Source of the DNA: an uncultured Christensenella sp.
GTDB lineage: Bacteria; Bacillota; Clostridia; Christensenellales; UBA1242
Assembly: GCA_964564685.1 (NCBI GenBank)
Contig: CAZMBC010000001.1
Location: forward strand, 227,206 to 291,205
DNA length: 64,000 nt
Reading direction: 5' to 3'
In this document: piece by piece, positions 35,006 to 43,124 of the stretch
How the letters are laid out: every line of letters begins with the position of its first letter
Numbering within the stretch: position 1 is the first letter of the stretch
The notes under the pieces: generated by a model
Told to the model about the DNA's origin: nothing
Databases searched by the model: none
What the model saw: only the letters and a program-made list of their open reading frames with translations
Program-made: the position numbers and the translations under genes

Positions 35006-35140
35006 TTACGCTGTTAATTTTTTTCTTCCACGATTTCTTCTTCTTTGAAGCACATTTCTACCACCTTTGGTTTGCATACGCTTTCTAAATCCGTGTACCT
35101 TTACTCTGTGTCTTTTTTTAGGTTGATAAGTTCTTTTCAT
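35006..35140 (-). CDS. rpmH: 50S ribosomal protein L34
   Basis: Below the ORF-track size cutoff. Manual translation gives [54 protein letters not shown] upstream. Confidence 0.9.
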
Positions 35141-35206
35141 CCTGTAATCCCTTCCTTTTAGTATTTTAAACAATTTTGCATGCACAAACTAACTTGGTTA
35201 GAGCAT

Positions 35207-35238
35207 AAAAAATCGCTAATTTAAATAGCTAGCGATTT
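35207..35238 (-). terminator. Putative terminator after the GNAT gene
   Basis: AAATCGCTA (35210-35218) pairs with TAGCGATTT (35230-35238) across an 11-nt loop, with a short T-run on the minus strand. Confidence 0.4.
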
Positions 35239-35296
35239 AATTATATATAAATTATAGCCAATAGTCAACAAAAATTTTTACTTTGAGCACTGATAT

Positions 35297-36253
35297 TTAG
35301 TTTGTTTTACAGTTATTTTCCATCATTAAAGTTTTTTTAGCTTTATTAAGCCATCGTTCTTCTTCAGTTGTTTTATTTTTTATTTCTTTATGCGCTTTGG
35401 CGTCTAAATCTAATTTGCATACCCATTCCATAATCTCTTTACAATTATTATTAACACTTTCGTTAGGGCTTTTGCTTGCATTTGTAAAGTTTAGAATATA
35501 TTTTTCTACGCCTGTGTTTTTGTTGTTAAGATTGTCTTGCATTATTTTTAAAAGCACAGGCATTTCTTTGGTGGTTGATATAAGAGATTTTATACGCCCA
35601 GCAGTTAGGTTATATTGATACAAATTATCATACATTTTATAGTTAACCATATCTTCAACAAACTTATAAACATCTGTAATATTGTTATCAACAATCTCTT
35701 TATGTATTTCATACATAATTTGCGCTAATTGATAGTTGCGCTCATTTAACGGTCTTACCATTGTTGAACACCCAAGCTCTAAGTCCCCAAAGCACAAAAA
35801 CTGATTATTATAATACAGCTGCTTCGCGTCCCATGTATTTACAGATTGTAATATAACATAGGAATAATCGTCTTTAAATTTTTGTTCTATATGATTAAGC
35901 AATGCGGTTGCGTATCCTTTTTTGCGTTCACCTTTAACAACAGCAAGCTCGTTTATTTCAATAAAGTTTGGCAAAACGCTTTGTATACTTGTTTTTAGTT
36001 CAAACAAGCACATCGCGCACGCTTTATTTTTTTCATTATACAAAACCGCAATCCTTTGCCCATTTTTACAAAAAACCTTTTCTTGCATTTTAATAGTGTC
36101 TTGAAATTTTATTTGGTCAATCTCTCCGCCAATATTTAATATCTCCACACACAAAAATTTTAAATAAGCATAAATCTTTTTTTTATTCTCTTTTATATCT
36201 TTAACTGAATAATATTCAATTGCATTGCCGTTTTTAAGCATATATTTTTCCAT
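35297..36253 (-). CDS. GNAT-family N-acetyltransferase with about 150-aa C-terminal extension of unknown function
   Basis: Acetyl-CoA motif A INELAVVKGERKKGYATALLNHIEQKF. Likely start is ATG 36253 (GAGGTG RBS); the track start at 36292 is upstream. Confidence 0.6.
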   Translation of the reverse strand: MEKYMLKNGNAIEYYSVKDIKENKKKIYAYLKFLCVEILNIGGEIDQIKFQDTIKMQEKVFCKNGQRIAVLYNEKNKACAMCLFELKTSIQSVLPNFIEINELAVVKGERKKGYATALLNHIEQKFKDDYSYVILQSVNTWDAKQLYYNNQFLCFGDLELGCSTMVRPLNERNYQLAQIMYEIHKEIVDNNITDVYKFVEDMVNYKMYDNLYQYNLTAGRIKSLISTTKEMPVLLKIMQDNLNNKNTGVEKYILNFTNASKSPNESVNNNCKEIMEWVCKLDLDAKAHKEIKNKTTEEERWLNKAKKTLMMENNCKTN

Positions 36254-40363: not shown

Positions 40364-40453
40364 ATTTTATATTATATCACAAATTATTAAAAATTCATAT
40401 TGTTTTATACAATTTTTCATGTTATACTAAAGCGTACTAGGAGATTTCTTGTT

Positions 40454-40978
40454 ATGGAAACAATTATATTTGTAGAAAACAAAGCGCAACAAATAAACCT
40501 TAAAATAACATGCGAACACTTTGACGGCCAGGGCCTTGCACAGCGCACTGAAGAGCTAAATCAACAACTAAACACTAGTGGTAAAATAGAAAGTTTTAGC
40601 GGATTTCAAAACGAACATATTTACTTGTTGCTTATGATGCAGGGCGCGATTGTGTGCGCTCATGAAGAAAACAACAAAAAATGCGGAATAAAATATTGCT
40701 ATAATCCGCAAAGCAATAAATTTACAAGCAGTGAATATAATAAACTTCCACAGGAATATATAATATATGACTTGCCTAAAAATGAAAGCTATTGCAACAA
40801 TAACGCTTTTATACGCATACACGGCATGCAAATTAAAGATAATCATTACGATTTTGAAATAAAACACAATGCACTAGGATTTGAAAGTTTTACAATAACA
40901 AAAACTGATGTAAAACAAAACAACAAAGCCAATGCACAAACAATAACATATGTTAAACAATTAGGAGGCAAAATATAA
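40454..40978 (+). CDS. Hypothetical protein (174 aa from ATG 40454)
   Basis: AGGAG RBS before ATG 40454. No recognisable motif. Occupies the recF/gyrB gap. Confidence 0.45.
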   Translation: METIIFVENKAQQINLKITCEHFDGQGLAQRTEELNQQLNTSGKIESFSGFQNEHIYLLLMMQGAIVCAHEENNKKCGIKYCYNPQSNKFTSSEYNKLPQEYIIYDLPKNESYCNNNAFIRIHGMQIKDNHYDFEIKHNALGFESFTITKTDVKQNNKANAQTITYVKQLGGKI

Positions 40979-41198
40979 AGCCTCCTTTTTTATATCTAAA
41001 ACACGCCCAACTTAAAGTTTTATATATTTTACTAACCTCTTGCGTTTAGCGTGTTTTAAGCCCTATATAATGTGTTATTATATATAATAATATATATTTA
41101 TTATAATAATATAATAAAAACGCTTTGTTTAAAAATAAAAATATGTTATAATCTGCATTAAATAAGGCATACATTTGCCAAAAAAATGCGAGGTTAAT

Positions 41199-43124
41199 AT
41201 GGCTGAAAACGAACATGTTTTAATGAAATCAGTTAAGTATGACGAGGCGGATATACAAGTTTTAGAGGGGTTGGAACCTGTAAGAAAACGCCCAGGAATG
41301 TATATAGGAAGTACTGACGAACGCGGATTGCATCACTTGGTGCAGGAAATAGTGGACAACTCTATTGATGAGGCGTTGGCGGGCTATTGCACGGTGGTTA
41401 ACGTTGTGTTAAACAGAGATGGCAGCTGTTCGGTTACGGATAACGGACGCGGAATTCCTACCGGCATGCACAAAACCGAAAAGAAAAGCGCAGTTGAGGT
41501 TGTGTTAACTAAACTACACGCAGGCGGAAAATTTGGTGGCGAGGGCTACAAAATATCAGGAGGTTTGCATGGGGTTGGCTTAAGTTGTGTTAATGCACTT
41601 TCCGAGTGGTTGGAAGTTACTGTTTATCAAAATAATAAAATTCATCAGCAACTTTATCGTCGTGGCGTTCCCCAAGCACCACTAAAGGTTATTGGCGATA
41701 CCGACAAAACAGGTACAACTGTTACATTTATGCCTGATGACGAAATTTTTGAAACTGTAGAGTTTGATTATAATCACTTAAAGGCTCGCTTTAGAGAAAT
41801 TGCGTTTTTAAACAAAGGCTTAACCCTTTCCATAGAGGATAAGCGTGGTGAAGAGTCTGTTAAAGAAGTGTATTGCTTTGAGGGCGGAATAGTAGAGTTT
41901 GTTGATTATTTAAACAAAAGCAAGGAAACGCTTTTTGAAAAACCTGTATACGTGGATGTTGTTAACGACACAAACGAAGTAGAGGTGGCTTTTCAATTTA
42001 ACACAGGCTATAACGAAATAATAAATTCGTACGCCAACAATATTAACACCGAAGAGGGTGGAACGCACCTTGTTGGCTTTAAAAATGCGTTAACAAAAAT
42101 TATTAACGACTATGGCAAAAATAATAAAATACTAAAAGAAAGTGAAAAGTTGAGCGGAGAGGATGTTCGAGAGGGCATAACTGCAATCATTAGCGTAAAA
42201 TTGCAAAATCCACAATTTGAGGGACAAACAAAAACCAAACTAGGCAATAGTGAAATGCGTAAAATTGTAGAGGACGCAATGCAAGATAAGTTTGGTGATT
42301 TTATGGAAGAAAACCCAACAATTGCGCGTGATTTAGTGCTAAAGTGTATAACTGCAAAACGAGCAAGGGATGCAGCGCGTGTTGCGCGTGAGAGCACCCG
42401 CAGAAAGGGCATTTTGGAAAGTACAACTCTTCCGGGAAAACTTGCTGATTGTAGTTGTAAAGACCGCAGTAAAACCGAAATTTACCTTGTAGAGGGTGAC
42501 AGCGCAGGAGGAAGTGCAAAACAGGGTCGTGACCGTAGATTCCAAGCAATACTACCTTTACGCGGAAAGATTTTAAATGTAGAAAAAGCATCTCTTCATA
42601 AGGTTATGGCAAGCGACACTATTAAAAACATGATAACTGCGTTTGGATGCGGGATAACCAGCGAGTTTAACGAAGATAAGTTGCGTTATGATAAAATTAT
42701 AATTATGACAGATGCGGATGTTGATGGTTCACACATTAGAATATTGTTATTAACCTTTATTTTTAGATTTATGCAACCTCTAATAGACAAAGGCCATGTT
42801 TATATTGCTCAACCACCTTTGTATAAAATAAGTTATGGCAAGGAAAGCTATTATGCTTATTCGGATGACGAATTAAACGCTCGATTGGAACAAATGGGCA
42901 GACCAAAAGTTACACTTCAGCGCTACAAAGGTTTGGGCGAAATGAACCCAGAGCAGTTATGGGAAACAACCATGAACCCTGAAAACCGCGTGCTTTTAAG
43001 AGTGTCTATGGAAGACGCTGTAGAGGCTGACGAGGTGTTTAGCAAACTTATGGGTGAAGACCCTGAATTGCGCAGAAAGTTTATTGAAGAAAACGCTAAT
43101 CTTGTTAAAGATTTGGATATTTAG
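41199..43124 (+). CDS. gyrB: DNA gyrase subunit B
   Basis: [22 protein letters not shown] ATPase, Toprim [10 protein letters not shown] and [20 protein letters not shown] before ATG 41199; the track start at 41175 is an upstream TTG. Confidence 0.95.

Follow-up and report, generated by a model that had tools for sequence, protein, structure and literature searches.

A remodelled origin region with a predicted monopartite dnaA-dnaN origin in uncultured Christensenellales

In a 64-kb stretch of DNA from an uncultured lineage of gut Clostridia (Christensenellales), the whole of which is called the window here, the canonical layout around dnaA was probably remodelled by two small inversions, with the 226-bp dnaA-dnaN spacer serving as a monopartite functional origin and the recF-gyrB strand-switch region (40364-41198) not being the origin. 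We give this reading a probability of roughly 0.7. It draws on the observed gene order and its conservation in the clade, the box and trio architecture of the spacer, the absence of boxes elsewhere and the skew signatures. The origin still looks ordinary, lying between dnaA and dnaN minus the second half found in better-studied relatives. The arrangement is a newly seen variant of a known layout type, with inverted dnaA-dnaN and recF in Christensenellales, and is modest in degree.

The window contains a minus-strand run (parB…rnpA-rpmH-GNAT-dnaN-dnaA-recF) from which gyrB-gyrA diverge (Table 1). The products of rpmH, rnpA, yidD, dnaN, dnaA, recF, gyrB and gyrA were identified with NCBIfam equivalog models, all above cutoff, and the identities of yidC, jag, mnmE, mnmG and rsmG were backed by precomputed Pfam matches on identical contigs. 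The dnaN gene directly follows dnaA in the same direction. Because rpmH shares the strand of dnaA and comes after dnaN, it does not diverge from dnaA, and the window has no divergent rpmH-dnaA spacer. Instead of the canonical recF-gyrB-gyrA downstream of dnaN, recF is upstream of dnaA and gyrBA are on the opposite strand beyond recF. The GNAT gene is a variable insertion, with an orthologue in L163 (PF00583 at 44 bits) and none in L164, L165 or L167.

Table 1. Positions of genes and predicted elements in the window
Feature	Position	Strand	Basis or detail
parB	26145-27029	minus	tblastn matches to parB in many genomes; Pfam ParB_N at orthologous positions (L163, L165, L169)
parA	27043-27810	minus	tblastn matches to parA in many genomes; Pfam ParA at orthologous positions (L163, L165, L169)
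rsmG (gidB)	27919-28641	minus	PF02527 GidB on identical contig L081
parS site 1 (presumed)	28678-28693		perfect palindrome TGTTTCACGTGAAACA; mnmG-rsmG spacer
parS site 2 (presumed)	29123-29138		perfect palindrome TGTTTCACGTGAAACA
mnmG, mnmE, jag, yidC, yidD, rnpA (co-directional block)	29219-34931	minus	Pfam on identical contig L081; NCBIfam for rnpA and yidD
rpmH (L34)	35006-35140	minus	NCBIfam TIGR01030, 66 bits; ATG at 35140 gives 44 aa, same 44-aa call in L081
rpmH promoter-like site TTGACT-17-TATAAT	35240-35268	minus	11/12 consensus positions; consensus match alone
GNAT acetyltransferase gene, dnaN-rpmH junction	35297-36292	minus	Pfam PF00583, 26 bits vs cutoff 20.7
dnaN	36497-37597	minus	NCBIfam TIGR00663, 289 bits
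Predicted oriC (oriC2-type, monopartite), entire dnaA-dnaN spacer, 226 bp	37598-37823	minus	box enrichment and conserved architecture
AT-rich tract, predicted DNA unwinding element (DUE)	37608-37636		runs up to dnaN RBS (37604-37607)
DnaA-trio-like triplets	37637-37657	minus	top strand TTA TAA ATA CTA TTA CGA TTT
DUE-proximal tandem DnaA boxes	37662-37678	minus	TTGTTCACA 37670-37678 and ATATTCACA 37662-37670, 2 mismatches each, 1-nt overlap
Palindrome-like element ATACAAGATATTGTA	37689-37703		clade consensus AYACWAYATNTWGTR; invariant columns in 10-taxon alignment
dnaA-proximal box cluster	37753-37801	minus	two reverse boxes (37793-37801, 37784-37792) and two tandem forward boxes
Tandem forward boxes of that cluster	37765-37773, 37753-37761		TTTTTCACA, TTATACACA; conserved columns in alignment A2
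dnaA	37824-39164	minus	TTG start; NCBIfam TIGR00362, 496 bits
recF-dnaA spacer, 110 bp, predicted dnaA promoter region	39165-39274	minus	-35 TTTACT 39226-39231; extended -10 TTGATATAAT 39203-39212; RBS 39173-39177
recF	39275-40363	minus	NCBIfam TIGR00611, 361 bits; inverted vs canonical layout
Small lineage-specific ORF, 177 aa	40445-40978	plus	RBS; terminator-like hairpin 40964-40991 read directly from sequence
gyrB promoter region (predicted)	41064-41152	plus	(TA)-rich tract 41064-41120; -35-like TTGTTT 41125-41130; extended -10 TGTTATAAT 41144-41152
gyrB	41199-43124	plus	NCBIfam, 1021 bits
gyrA	43140-45698	plus	NCBIfam, 1198 bits

The first-pass annotation of this DNA had reported the same order with divergent gyrBA and had allowed for a misassembly. 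The source seems to be a metagenome-derived genome and the junctions are AT-rich, but all of them are covered by two independent single-run assemblies with 100% identity over 21.3 kb and 9.6 kb, and another six assemblies, which come from separate projects and span a range of divergence, have this order too. We therefore consider it a negligible prospect that repeated or AT-rich DNA produced a chimeric junction, and the reported order was borne out.

Comparison with the closest genomes, which that annotation had proposed, returned the window's order in L163-L167 and L169 (from NCBI, ENA and JGI) at 63-96% DnaA identity, indicating that it is clade-wide in uncultured Christensenellales. In another clade member, L168, dnaA is next to neither dnaN nor a box cluster. 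The window's DnaA was used to recover 160 loci from genome and metagenome collections. The canonical order was present in full in 85 of these and in part in about 40 more, and the eight non-canonical loci all belonged to the window's nearest relatives; the arrangement is unusual among the recovered loci. The possibility that it might prove universal in this clade and already documented held in its first part (63-100% DnaA identity) but not in its second, as the literature yielded no description of the arrangement and no paper combining Christensenella, dnaA and dnaN.

Inverting dnaA-dnaN in place and then recF in place converts the canonical layout into the window's exact order. The two layouts are at least two inversions apart, in keeping with an earlier estimate of at least two rearrangements, and the one-inversion state, recF(-) dnaA(+) dnaN(+) rpmH(+), is kept in the more distant sister lineages L004 and L005, where DnaA boxes are confined to the dnaA-dnaN spacer. 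We infer that the older inversion flipped the dnaA-oriC2-dnaN module of the canonical Firmicutes layout and that a later one flipped recF alone, which would now read toward the origin. The end points of the older inversion would straddle the unwinding site, so that genes inside and outside the module would keep their orientation relative to fork movement.

Within the window, no intergenic region other than the dnaA-dnaN spacer is dense in boxes. A scan based on TTATCCACA found six DnaA-box-like 9-mers with up to 2 mismatches there, where dinucleotide shuffling gave a mean of 1.04 (P = 0.0002), and two with up to 1 mismatch (shuffle P = 0.003); the other dense 250-bp stretch sits within a 3420-aa ORF. 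Six relatives have 3-7 boxes (up to 1 mismatch) in this spacer against a background of 0.4-0.9 per kb, and in the window and these relatives alike the boxes form a single cluster confined to the spacer. Read from dnaA to dnaN, the predicted origin would consist of a four-box cluster, the palindrome-like element, a tandem pair of boxes, a spacer of ~10 bp, the trios and an AT-rich element. An alignment of this spacer from ten taxa with 48-100% DnaA identity (alignment A2) keeps the tandem boxes (TTATACACA/TTTCCACA), the short G+C spacer, the nTA triplets and the AT tract, and the DUE-proximal tandem boxes are its most conserved block (TTATACACATTTCCACA). The 40-mer at 37617-37656 is within the least stable 0.12% of the window.

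The trio array of the window itself is weak. The central T (central A on the bottom strand) is found in five of the seven triplets, three of which are consecutive, a length reached by 35% of background boxes by chance. The case for trios therefore rests on conservation in the relatives, where the homologous site has 4-8 trios in a row; among background boxes, runs of at least 7 are seen for 0-3% in most loci. By analogy with C. difficile oriC2 and with the B. subtilis basal unwinding system (BUS), reportedly the work of Richardson in 2016 and 2019, DnaA would bind the tandem boxes, extend as an oligomer along the trios and melt the AT tract, and the dnaA-dnaN spacer would be where the DNA is unwound.

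Part of the evidence from third-codon-position GC skew (GC3 skew) points to a change of fork between dnaN and dnaA. Among the minus-strand genes of the window it changes from +0.06 to -0.06 (P = 0.003), with dnaN and dnaA on the two sides of the best split (permutation P = 0.04). The coding-strand GC3 skew of recF was -0.13 in the window and negative in all seven clade genomes (median -0.19), while the median over 83 canonical loci was +0.18 (Mann-Whitney P = 4e-6, the seven clade genomes being phylogenetically non-independent). This was the largest shift of 13 genes; those of gyrB and gyrA were no greater than those of other genes. Transcription of recF is predicted to run head-on to the rightward fork. 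The skew of dnaA was negative in the clade and canonical sets alike, as expected if unwinding takes place downstream of dnaA. Whole-gene GC skew in the window was dominated by coding-strand bias (coefficient 0.10 vs 0.029 for the replication term), the weighted GC3 regression in the window did not pick the dnaA-dnaN site, and the sister-lineage control for recF was noisy, being supportive at three of six loci.

Two perfect palindromes that we take to be parS sites are found ~8.5-9 kb from the dnaA-dnaN spacer, a proximity consistent with an origin-proximal location. The scan gave five strand-matches at up to 2 mismatches where 0.27 were expected, and L163, L165, L166 and L169 have two to three sites at the same place. 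These sites, together with the skew, bear on whether the true origin could instead be outside the window, as in E. coli, with the dnaA-dnaN boxes a relic or regulatory and the window part of one replichore in which the minus strand is leading and gyrBA are head-on. The minus strand carries about three-quarters of the window's ORFs; to the right of 50 kb it has most of them, and these genes would be head-on were the origin at the dnaA-dnaN spacer. The cumulative skew drops once more past 51 kb, the plus-strand genes show no skew switch (mean -0.145 right of the site, n = 8, vs -0.082 left, n = 4), and the detached dnaA of L168 also fits an outside origin. However, such an origin predicts a leading recF and lagging gyrBA, whereas recF has a large lagging-type shift and gyrB and gyrA an ordinary one, and it does not account for the difference in minus-strand GC3 skew between the two sides of the spacer or for the adjacent parS sites. 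The mnmG-rsmG spacer, flanking mnmG as the E. coli origin does, contains, over its 577 bp, a single box at up to 1 mismatch; in relatives it has none, and this location was not box-enriched in any clade member. Boxes, trios and AT tract are also conserved in phase over the ten taxa, a pattern expected if the site is an unwinding module and not if it simply titrates DnaA or serves autoregulation. We regard an origin outside the window as unlikely.

The first-pass annotation had offered two alternatives within the window, an origin reduced to the dnaA-dnaN spacer or one moved to the strand-switch region. The boxes, the BUS-like architecture, the loss of oriC1 and the GC3-skew switch favour the former, and relocation is not supported. 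The very AT-rich tract that it placed at about 41040-41140 is real: positions 41076-41115 are 100% A/T and form the least stable 40-mer of the whole window, and the cumulative GC-skew minimum and the gene-strand switch both fall at about 40-41 kb. An origin there, or at least an unwinding element using the AT tract at 41064-41120 as DUE, is nevertheless highly improbable. The extreme AT content is explained by the (TA)-rich tract upstream of the gyrB promoter, and the skew minimum by coding-strand bias. The region is not an 835-bp non-coding stretch, as its truly intergenic pieces amount to 81 bp and 220 bp on either side of a small ORF. This ORF matched no NCBIfam or Pfam family; it is called as a gene in L081 and L082, has counterparts in L163 and L164 and is missing from L166 and L167. 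Neither intergenic piece includes a DnaA-box-like 9-mer even at 2 mismatches, and the gyrB-recF spacers of relatives have 0-1 boxes. Depending on the clade member, the region has between zero and three ORFs, and the sole feature conserved there is the gyrB extended -10, which five of the seven members keep; boxes are not conserved. A relocated origin also predicts leading-strand recF and dnaA, but recF is lagging-type in all seven genomes and the best minus-strand split is not after recF.

On the preferred reading, oriC1, the upstream half of the usual bipartite origin in the rpmH-dnaA spacer, would have been lost, and the origin would therefore be monopartite. The recF-dnaA spacer had been described as 110 bp without DnaA boxes, and it is exactly that length, with no DnaA-box-like 9-mer even at 2 mismatches. 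In five of six relatives this spacer has no boxes at up to 1 mismatch; the exception is L169, with two 1-mismatch boxes in a longer spacer of 303 bp. As a positive control, the identical scan detected a median of 7 boxes in oriC1 and 3 in oriC2 of 97 canonical loci, from which the clade has a typical oriC2 (downstream cluster and DUE) and no oriC1 (upstream cluster), the two halves of a bipartite origin of the B. subtilis, C. difficile and H. pylori type.

We infer that oriC2 alone is sufficient. In C. difficile, oriC2 was not unwound in vitro without oriC1 (PMC7561715), so sufficiency of a stand-alone oriC2 is not guaranteed. The origin could still be functionally bipartite, with a second DnaA-binding region too degenerate or distant for the scan and cooperating by looping, as the need for both halves in C. 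difficile, the two boxes in L169, one perfect box upstream of gyrB in L163 and a window-wide excess of box-like 9-mers (40 vs 19.8 expected) would allow. Against this, the region upstream of dnaA is just 104-149 bp in most clade members with only promoter and RBS features conserved, no second cluster was found within 10 kb in six genomes, and the scan detects canonical oriC1. A bipartite origin is very unlikely.

An inversion with end points flanking the origin preserves gene orientation relative to replication, and such origin-symmetric inversions ('X-alignments') were reportedly described by Eisen and by Tillier and Collins in 2000. The same preservation would explain why a flip of dnaA-oriC-dnaN was tolerated. 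The inversion seen here differs in being just ~2.7 kb and containing the origin module itself, and in having been followed by a second, non-symmetric inversion of a single gene, recF. The relocated oriC of E. coli lies between mnmG (gidA) and mioC, far from dnaA, whereas the boxes of the window stay with dnaA-dnaN and its mnmG-rsmG spacer bears parS sites, not an enrichment of DnaA boxes. Monopartite dnaA-dnaN origins are known from Actinobacteria (Mycobacterium, Streptomyces), but there rnpA-rpmH still diverges from dnaA, recF-gyrB-gyrA lie downstream of dnaN, and box numbers and consensus differ from those of the window.

The published search rule for BUS tolerates up to 2 mismatches in a first box and up to 4 in a second one adjacent to it, and asks for at least three NAN trios in succession on the correct strand, at a distance of 0-16 bp from the box (Pelliciari et al. 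2021; PMC8287927). At the sequence level the spacer satisfies this rule, with TTGTTCACA and ATATTCACA (2 mismatches each) as the boxes and, minimally, ATA CTA TTA (37643-37651), 10 bp after the box, as the trios. It differs in the minimal run of three and in the 1-nt overlap of its boxes, compared with a separation of 0-3 bp. The experimentally unwound oriC2 of C. difficile has the trio CACCTACTACTATTACTACTATGA (PMC7561715), to which the trio sequence of the relatives, CACACCTACTACTAATAATACTACTA, is nearly identical. Compared with B. subtilis (incAB/incC) and C. difficile (oriC1/oriC2), the window is without the rpmH-dnaA spacer and its upstream cluster (incAB/oriC1), its dnaA-oriC2-dnaN module points the other way with respect to rpmH and gyrBA, and recF precedes dnaA in the same orientation. 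The likeness is in the spacer, which has the oriC2/incC architecture of a box cluster, tandem boxes and a short spacer, with trios on the strand complementary to dnaA and an AT-rich DUE beside dnaN, and in both layouts dnaA is replicated head-on.

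The gene order and strands reported in the first-pass annotation were confirmed with NCBIfam equivalog models for rpmH, rnpA, yidD, dnaN, dnaA, recF, gyrB and gyrA, and the GNAT gene at the dnaN/rpmH junction scored above the Pfam GNAT threshold. Two single-run Logan assemblies (SRR6824179 and SRR6824180) matched the window with 100% identity, one over 21.3 kb and the other over 9.6 kb, and all junctions are spanned. The same order was found in NCBI, ENA and JGI assemblies of relatives with DnaA 96, 89, 73, 72, 68 and 63% identical to that of the window, and these independent assemblies rule out the misassembly junction that had initially been considered. 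In the relatives sharing the layout, gyrA and gyrB are on one strand, and recF, dnaA, dnaN, a variable ORF, rpmH, rnpA, yidD/yidC, jag, mnmE, mnmG, rsmG, parA and parB are on the other. Where source names were given for their proteins, they were Christensenellales or Clostridia bacterium. The layout is real and conserved across the clade.

Among 160 loci retrieved with the DnaA of the window from a species-representative genome set and metagenome contigs, 85 had the full canonical order, rpmH(-)|dnaA dnaN recF, and approximately 40 more were partially canonical. The eight non-canonical exceptions were all nearest relatives of the window. Nearly all matches in the scan of metagenome contigs were canonical and distant, and the close relatives were found through protein database and contig look-ups. 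The canonical dnaA cluster has been described (PMC4285127, PMC7561715). No paper combining Christensenella, dnaA and dnaN was found in the literature searched, and wider queries yielded nothing beyond papers on oriC in general. Of the suggestion that the arrangement was universal in the clade and already documented, the first part holds and the second appears not to, as the layout is apparently undescribed so far.

Features of the origin region and other located features of the window (alignment elements are listed in order through the dnaA-dnaN spacer)
Feature	Position	Strand	Basis or description
parS site 1	28678-28693		perfect 16-bp palindrome TGTTTCACGTGAAACA, mnmG-rsmG spacer
parS site 2	29123-29138		perfect 16-bp palindrome TGTTTCACGTGAAACA, ~445 bp from site 1
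yidC, jag, mnmE, mnmG, rsmG			Pfam annotation of contigs identical to the window
rpmH, rnpA, yidD		minus	NCBIfam equivalog models
dnaN	36497-37597	minus	NCBIfam equivalog model
Predicted oriC	37598-37823		dnaA-dnaN spacer, only box-dense intergenic region of the window
Alignment element 1			reverse box with two tandem boxes after it, close to the dnaA stop codon
Alignment element 2	37689-37703		palindrome-like element, consensus AYACWAYATNTWGTR
Alignment element 3			tandem box pair TTATACACA/TTTCCACA
Alignment element 4			3-5 G+C-rich bases
Alignment element 5			run of nTA triplets (3'-NAT-5' on the complementary strand)
Alignment element 6			AT-rich tract reaching the dnaN RBS
dnaA	37824-39164	minus	NCBIfam equivalog model
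recF	39275-40363	minus	NCBIfam equivalog model
orf178	40445-40978	plus	177 aa, RBS, terminator-like hairpin, several Cys
Extended -10 of gyrB	41144-41152		TGTTATAAT, conserved in the alignment upstream of gyrB
gyrB	41199-43124	plus	NCBIfam equivalog model
gyrA	43140-45698	plus	NCBIfam equivalog model
tRNA gene	53742-53813	plus	Rfam
tRNA gene	55936-56023	plus	Rfam

At least two rearrangements had been proposed, and inversion of [dnaA-dnaN] in place, then of recF in place, indeed converts the canonical order into that of the window. That dnaA-dnaN was inverted first and recF second is a parsimony argument, not a phylogenetic one. The one-inversion state, recF(-)|dnaA(+) dnaN(+) rpmH(+) rnpA(+), was found in L004, a comparison locus labelled Christensenella sp. 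(54% DnaA identity), and in L005 (48%). At least five different layouts around dnaA were seen among relatives with 43-66% DnaA identity. L002 has dnaN(-)|dnaA(+) with a 731 bp divergent spacer containing boxes, L003 has dnaA-dnaN-rpmH on one strand without recF, L018 and L093 have recF(-)|dnaA(+) with mnmG(+) directly after, and in L168 (66%) dnaA is detached from dnaN and has a PGI gene beside it. This variety indicates that the origin neighbourhood is unusually plastic in this order. Variable small genes are found at both junctions of the inverted block, namely GNAT or orf360 at the dnaN-rpmH junction and, depending on the relative, zero to three ORFs at the recF-gyrB junction. In L169 (63%), the rpmH-rnpA-yidC-jag block is gone from between dnaN and mnmE and its place is taken by 1.29 kb at 13% GC (12657-13943) with no called gene and three 1-mismatch DnaA boxes. 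In L165 (73%), 897 bp at 17% GC (9104-10000) separate recF from dnaA; two 103-aa ORFs were called there on the opposite strand, and no 1-mismatch DnaA boxes were present.

Of the two locations put forward for the origin in the first-pass annotation, reduction to the dnaA-dnaN spacer is favoured by box enrichment, conserved architecture, loss of oriC1 (the box cluster in the rpmH|dnaA spacer) and per-gene skew. With up to two mismatches allowed, the spacer contains six boxes, where dinucleotide shuffles give 1.04 on average (P = 0.0002); with up to one mismatch it contains two (P = 0.003). At up to one mismatch, the homologous spacer in six relatives contains 3-7 boxes (background, 0.4-0.9 per kb), and boxes are all but absent from their recF-dnaA and gyrB|recF spacers. 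The recF-dnaA spacer of the window is 110 bp long and has no DnaA boxes, both as first described; allowing two mismatches brought up no DnaA-box-like 9-mers either. Conservation in this spacer is limited to a -35, an extended -10 and the RBS. An alignment of the dnaA-dnaN spacer from ten taxa with 48-100% DnaA identity revealed a conserved non-coding architecture of six elements (table). At the homologous position the relatives have 4-8 consecutive trios, and the run of three in the window (5/7 conforming) is not above chance taken alone. Several positions of the palindrome-like element, which lies between the two box clusters (alignment columns ~201-215), are invariant in the ten taxa, and this element may be the binding site of another origin-binding protein.

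Across the whole window, 40 box-like 9-mers with up to one mismatch were found, about twice the 19.8 in shuffles (none of 100 shuffles reached 40). The four perfect TTATCCACA boxes, at 2213, 3711, 7658 and 10114, are all in coding sequence between 2 and 10 kb. The only other stretch as dense in box-like 9-mers as the origin is at ~12.0-12.3 kb, within a giant minus-strand ORF (6159-16421, 3420 aa), where the density probably arises from repeats or codon usage, not regulation.

The other proposed location was the strand-switch region between recF and gyrB (40364-41198). The AT tract noted near 41.1 kb is present, and bases 41076-41115 are 100% A/T and form the least stable 40-mer of the 64-kb window. 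The region is not simply non-coding, as it includes orf178, which was also called by gene callers on identical contigs. This ORF is lineage-specific, being found in the close relatives L163 and L164 and missing from L166 and L167. It matched no family in Pfam or NCBIfam, and identification as a remB/DUF721 or yaaA homologue was rejected on this basis. In the alignment of sequences upstream of gyrB, mean column identity was 43% and no boxes were conserved. A -35-like TTGTTT lies 16 bp upstream of the conserved extended -10, with a (TA)-rich tract directly upstream of it, and the sequence is most simply read as a gyrB promoter preceded by an AT-rich element. A scan for promoter and terminator consensus sequences gave no enrichment over shuffles, and individual promoter calls therefore rest on position and conservation in the alignment. 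Despite its extreme instability, the tract was rejected as a DUE because it lacks boxes and shows no conserved architecture beyond the promoter.

The cumulative GC-skew minimum of the window is at 40-41 kb. A two-term regression showed that whole-gene GC skew is mostly coding-strand bias; the small replication term is best near 38 kb, but the regression does not discriminate between 37.7 kb and 40.4-41.2 kb. A weighted GC3 fit was drawn elsewhere by the 10-kb ORF. Window-level skew was thus discarded as deciding evidence. When the minus-strand genes were analysed alone, removing the orientation confound, GC3 skew went from +0.06 at left to -0.06 at right (P = 0.003), and of all splits in the window the best was that separating dnaN from dnaA (permutation P = 0.04). 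The plus-strand genes of the window gave no support for a skew switch, and to the right of 50 kb the minus strand carries most genes.

Comparison across genomes was more informative. In 83 canonical loci, the coding-strand GC3 skew of recF is leading-type (median +0.18) and that of dnaA is lagging-type (-0.10), as expected with forks starting downstream of dnaA. In all seven window-layout genomes, which are related to one another, recF skew is negative (median -0.19; Mann-Whitney P = 4e-6 versus canonical). This shift of -0.37 is the largest of 13 genes, and those of gyrB, gyrA and dnaA are within the general offset. A sister-lineage control with divergent recF was too noisy for use. These data agree with initiation between dnaA and dnaN and a head-on recF. 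The lagging-type recF skew does not fit an origin at the recF|gyrB switch, and an origin to the right of the window is at odds with both the recF shift and the unexceptional gyrB and gyrA values.

The mnmG-rsmG spacer (28642-29218) is unusually long (577 bp, 19% GC) because it houses the two parS palindromes. Relatives have 2-3 such sites at the same place. Their distance of about 8.5-9 kb to the proposed origin accords with a location close to the origin. An origin next to mnmG, as in E. coli, was rejected, as this spacer has no box enrichment in any clade member. Rfam identified only two tRNAs in the window, both far from the origin region, and a mechanically called minus-strand ORF (53615-53926) overlapped by the first is therefore probably spurious.

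In the predicted origin, DnaA would bind the tandem boxes at 37662-37678, aided by the upstream cluster at 37753-37801, and oligomerise onto the trios at 37637-37657, opening the AT tract at 37608-37636. Of the two forks, one would proceed through dnaN and rpmH and on to parB, co-directional with those genes, while the other would run head-on to dnaA and recF and then co-directionally through gyrB and gyrA. As the first inversion would have straddled the unwinding site, the orientation of each gene to its fork would have been unchanged, and the later recF inversion would be the only step to alter it. The dnaA-oriC2-dnaN module, oriC2 being the box cluster and DUE in the dnaA-dnaN spacer, could thus flip as a unit, and a head-on recF beside the origin can last until it has taken on the mutational signature of the lagging strand. 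Here, origin predictors or MAG start conventions keyed to the rpmH|dnaA spacer or to the point of strand switch would be off by ~3 kb.

The Firmicutes origin is regarded as bipartite. In 97 canonical loci, the same scan gave a median box count of seven for the rpmH|dnaA spacer and of three for the spacer between dnaA and dnaN, and comparison with the boxes of the clade indicates that a typical oriC2 was kept and oriC1 lost. Complete loss of the box cluster upstream of dnaA is thus possible. We consider it somewhat better than an even chance (about 0.55) that an entire clade of gut Christensenellales replicates from a naturally monopartite origin consisting of oriC2, or the basal unwinding system (BUS), only, an origin-centred micro-inversion having destroyed oriC1 and stripped the dnaA promoter of its DnaA boxes. 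If so, both the oriC1 half of the bipartite origin and box-mediated autoregulation of the dnaA promoter are dispensable in nature, and the order is an unusual hotspot for origin-region rearrangement. The clade also provides a natural test of whether the BUS alone is sufficient in Clostridia.

In Clostridioides difficile, oriC2 without oriC1 was not unwound in vitro (PMC7561715). What is most interesting in this region is that a Clostridia lineage has naturally lost oriC1; the parts and mechanism of the region are otherwise ordinary, those of a standard oriC2/BUS module. The layout of the dnaA-dnaN spacer is that by which the BUS has been defined (PMC8287927), and CACCTACTACTATTACTACTATGA, the DnaA-trio of C. 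difficile oriC2, for which unwinding was shown experimentally (PMC7561715), is approximately the same sequence as the triplet run in the relatives.
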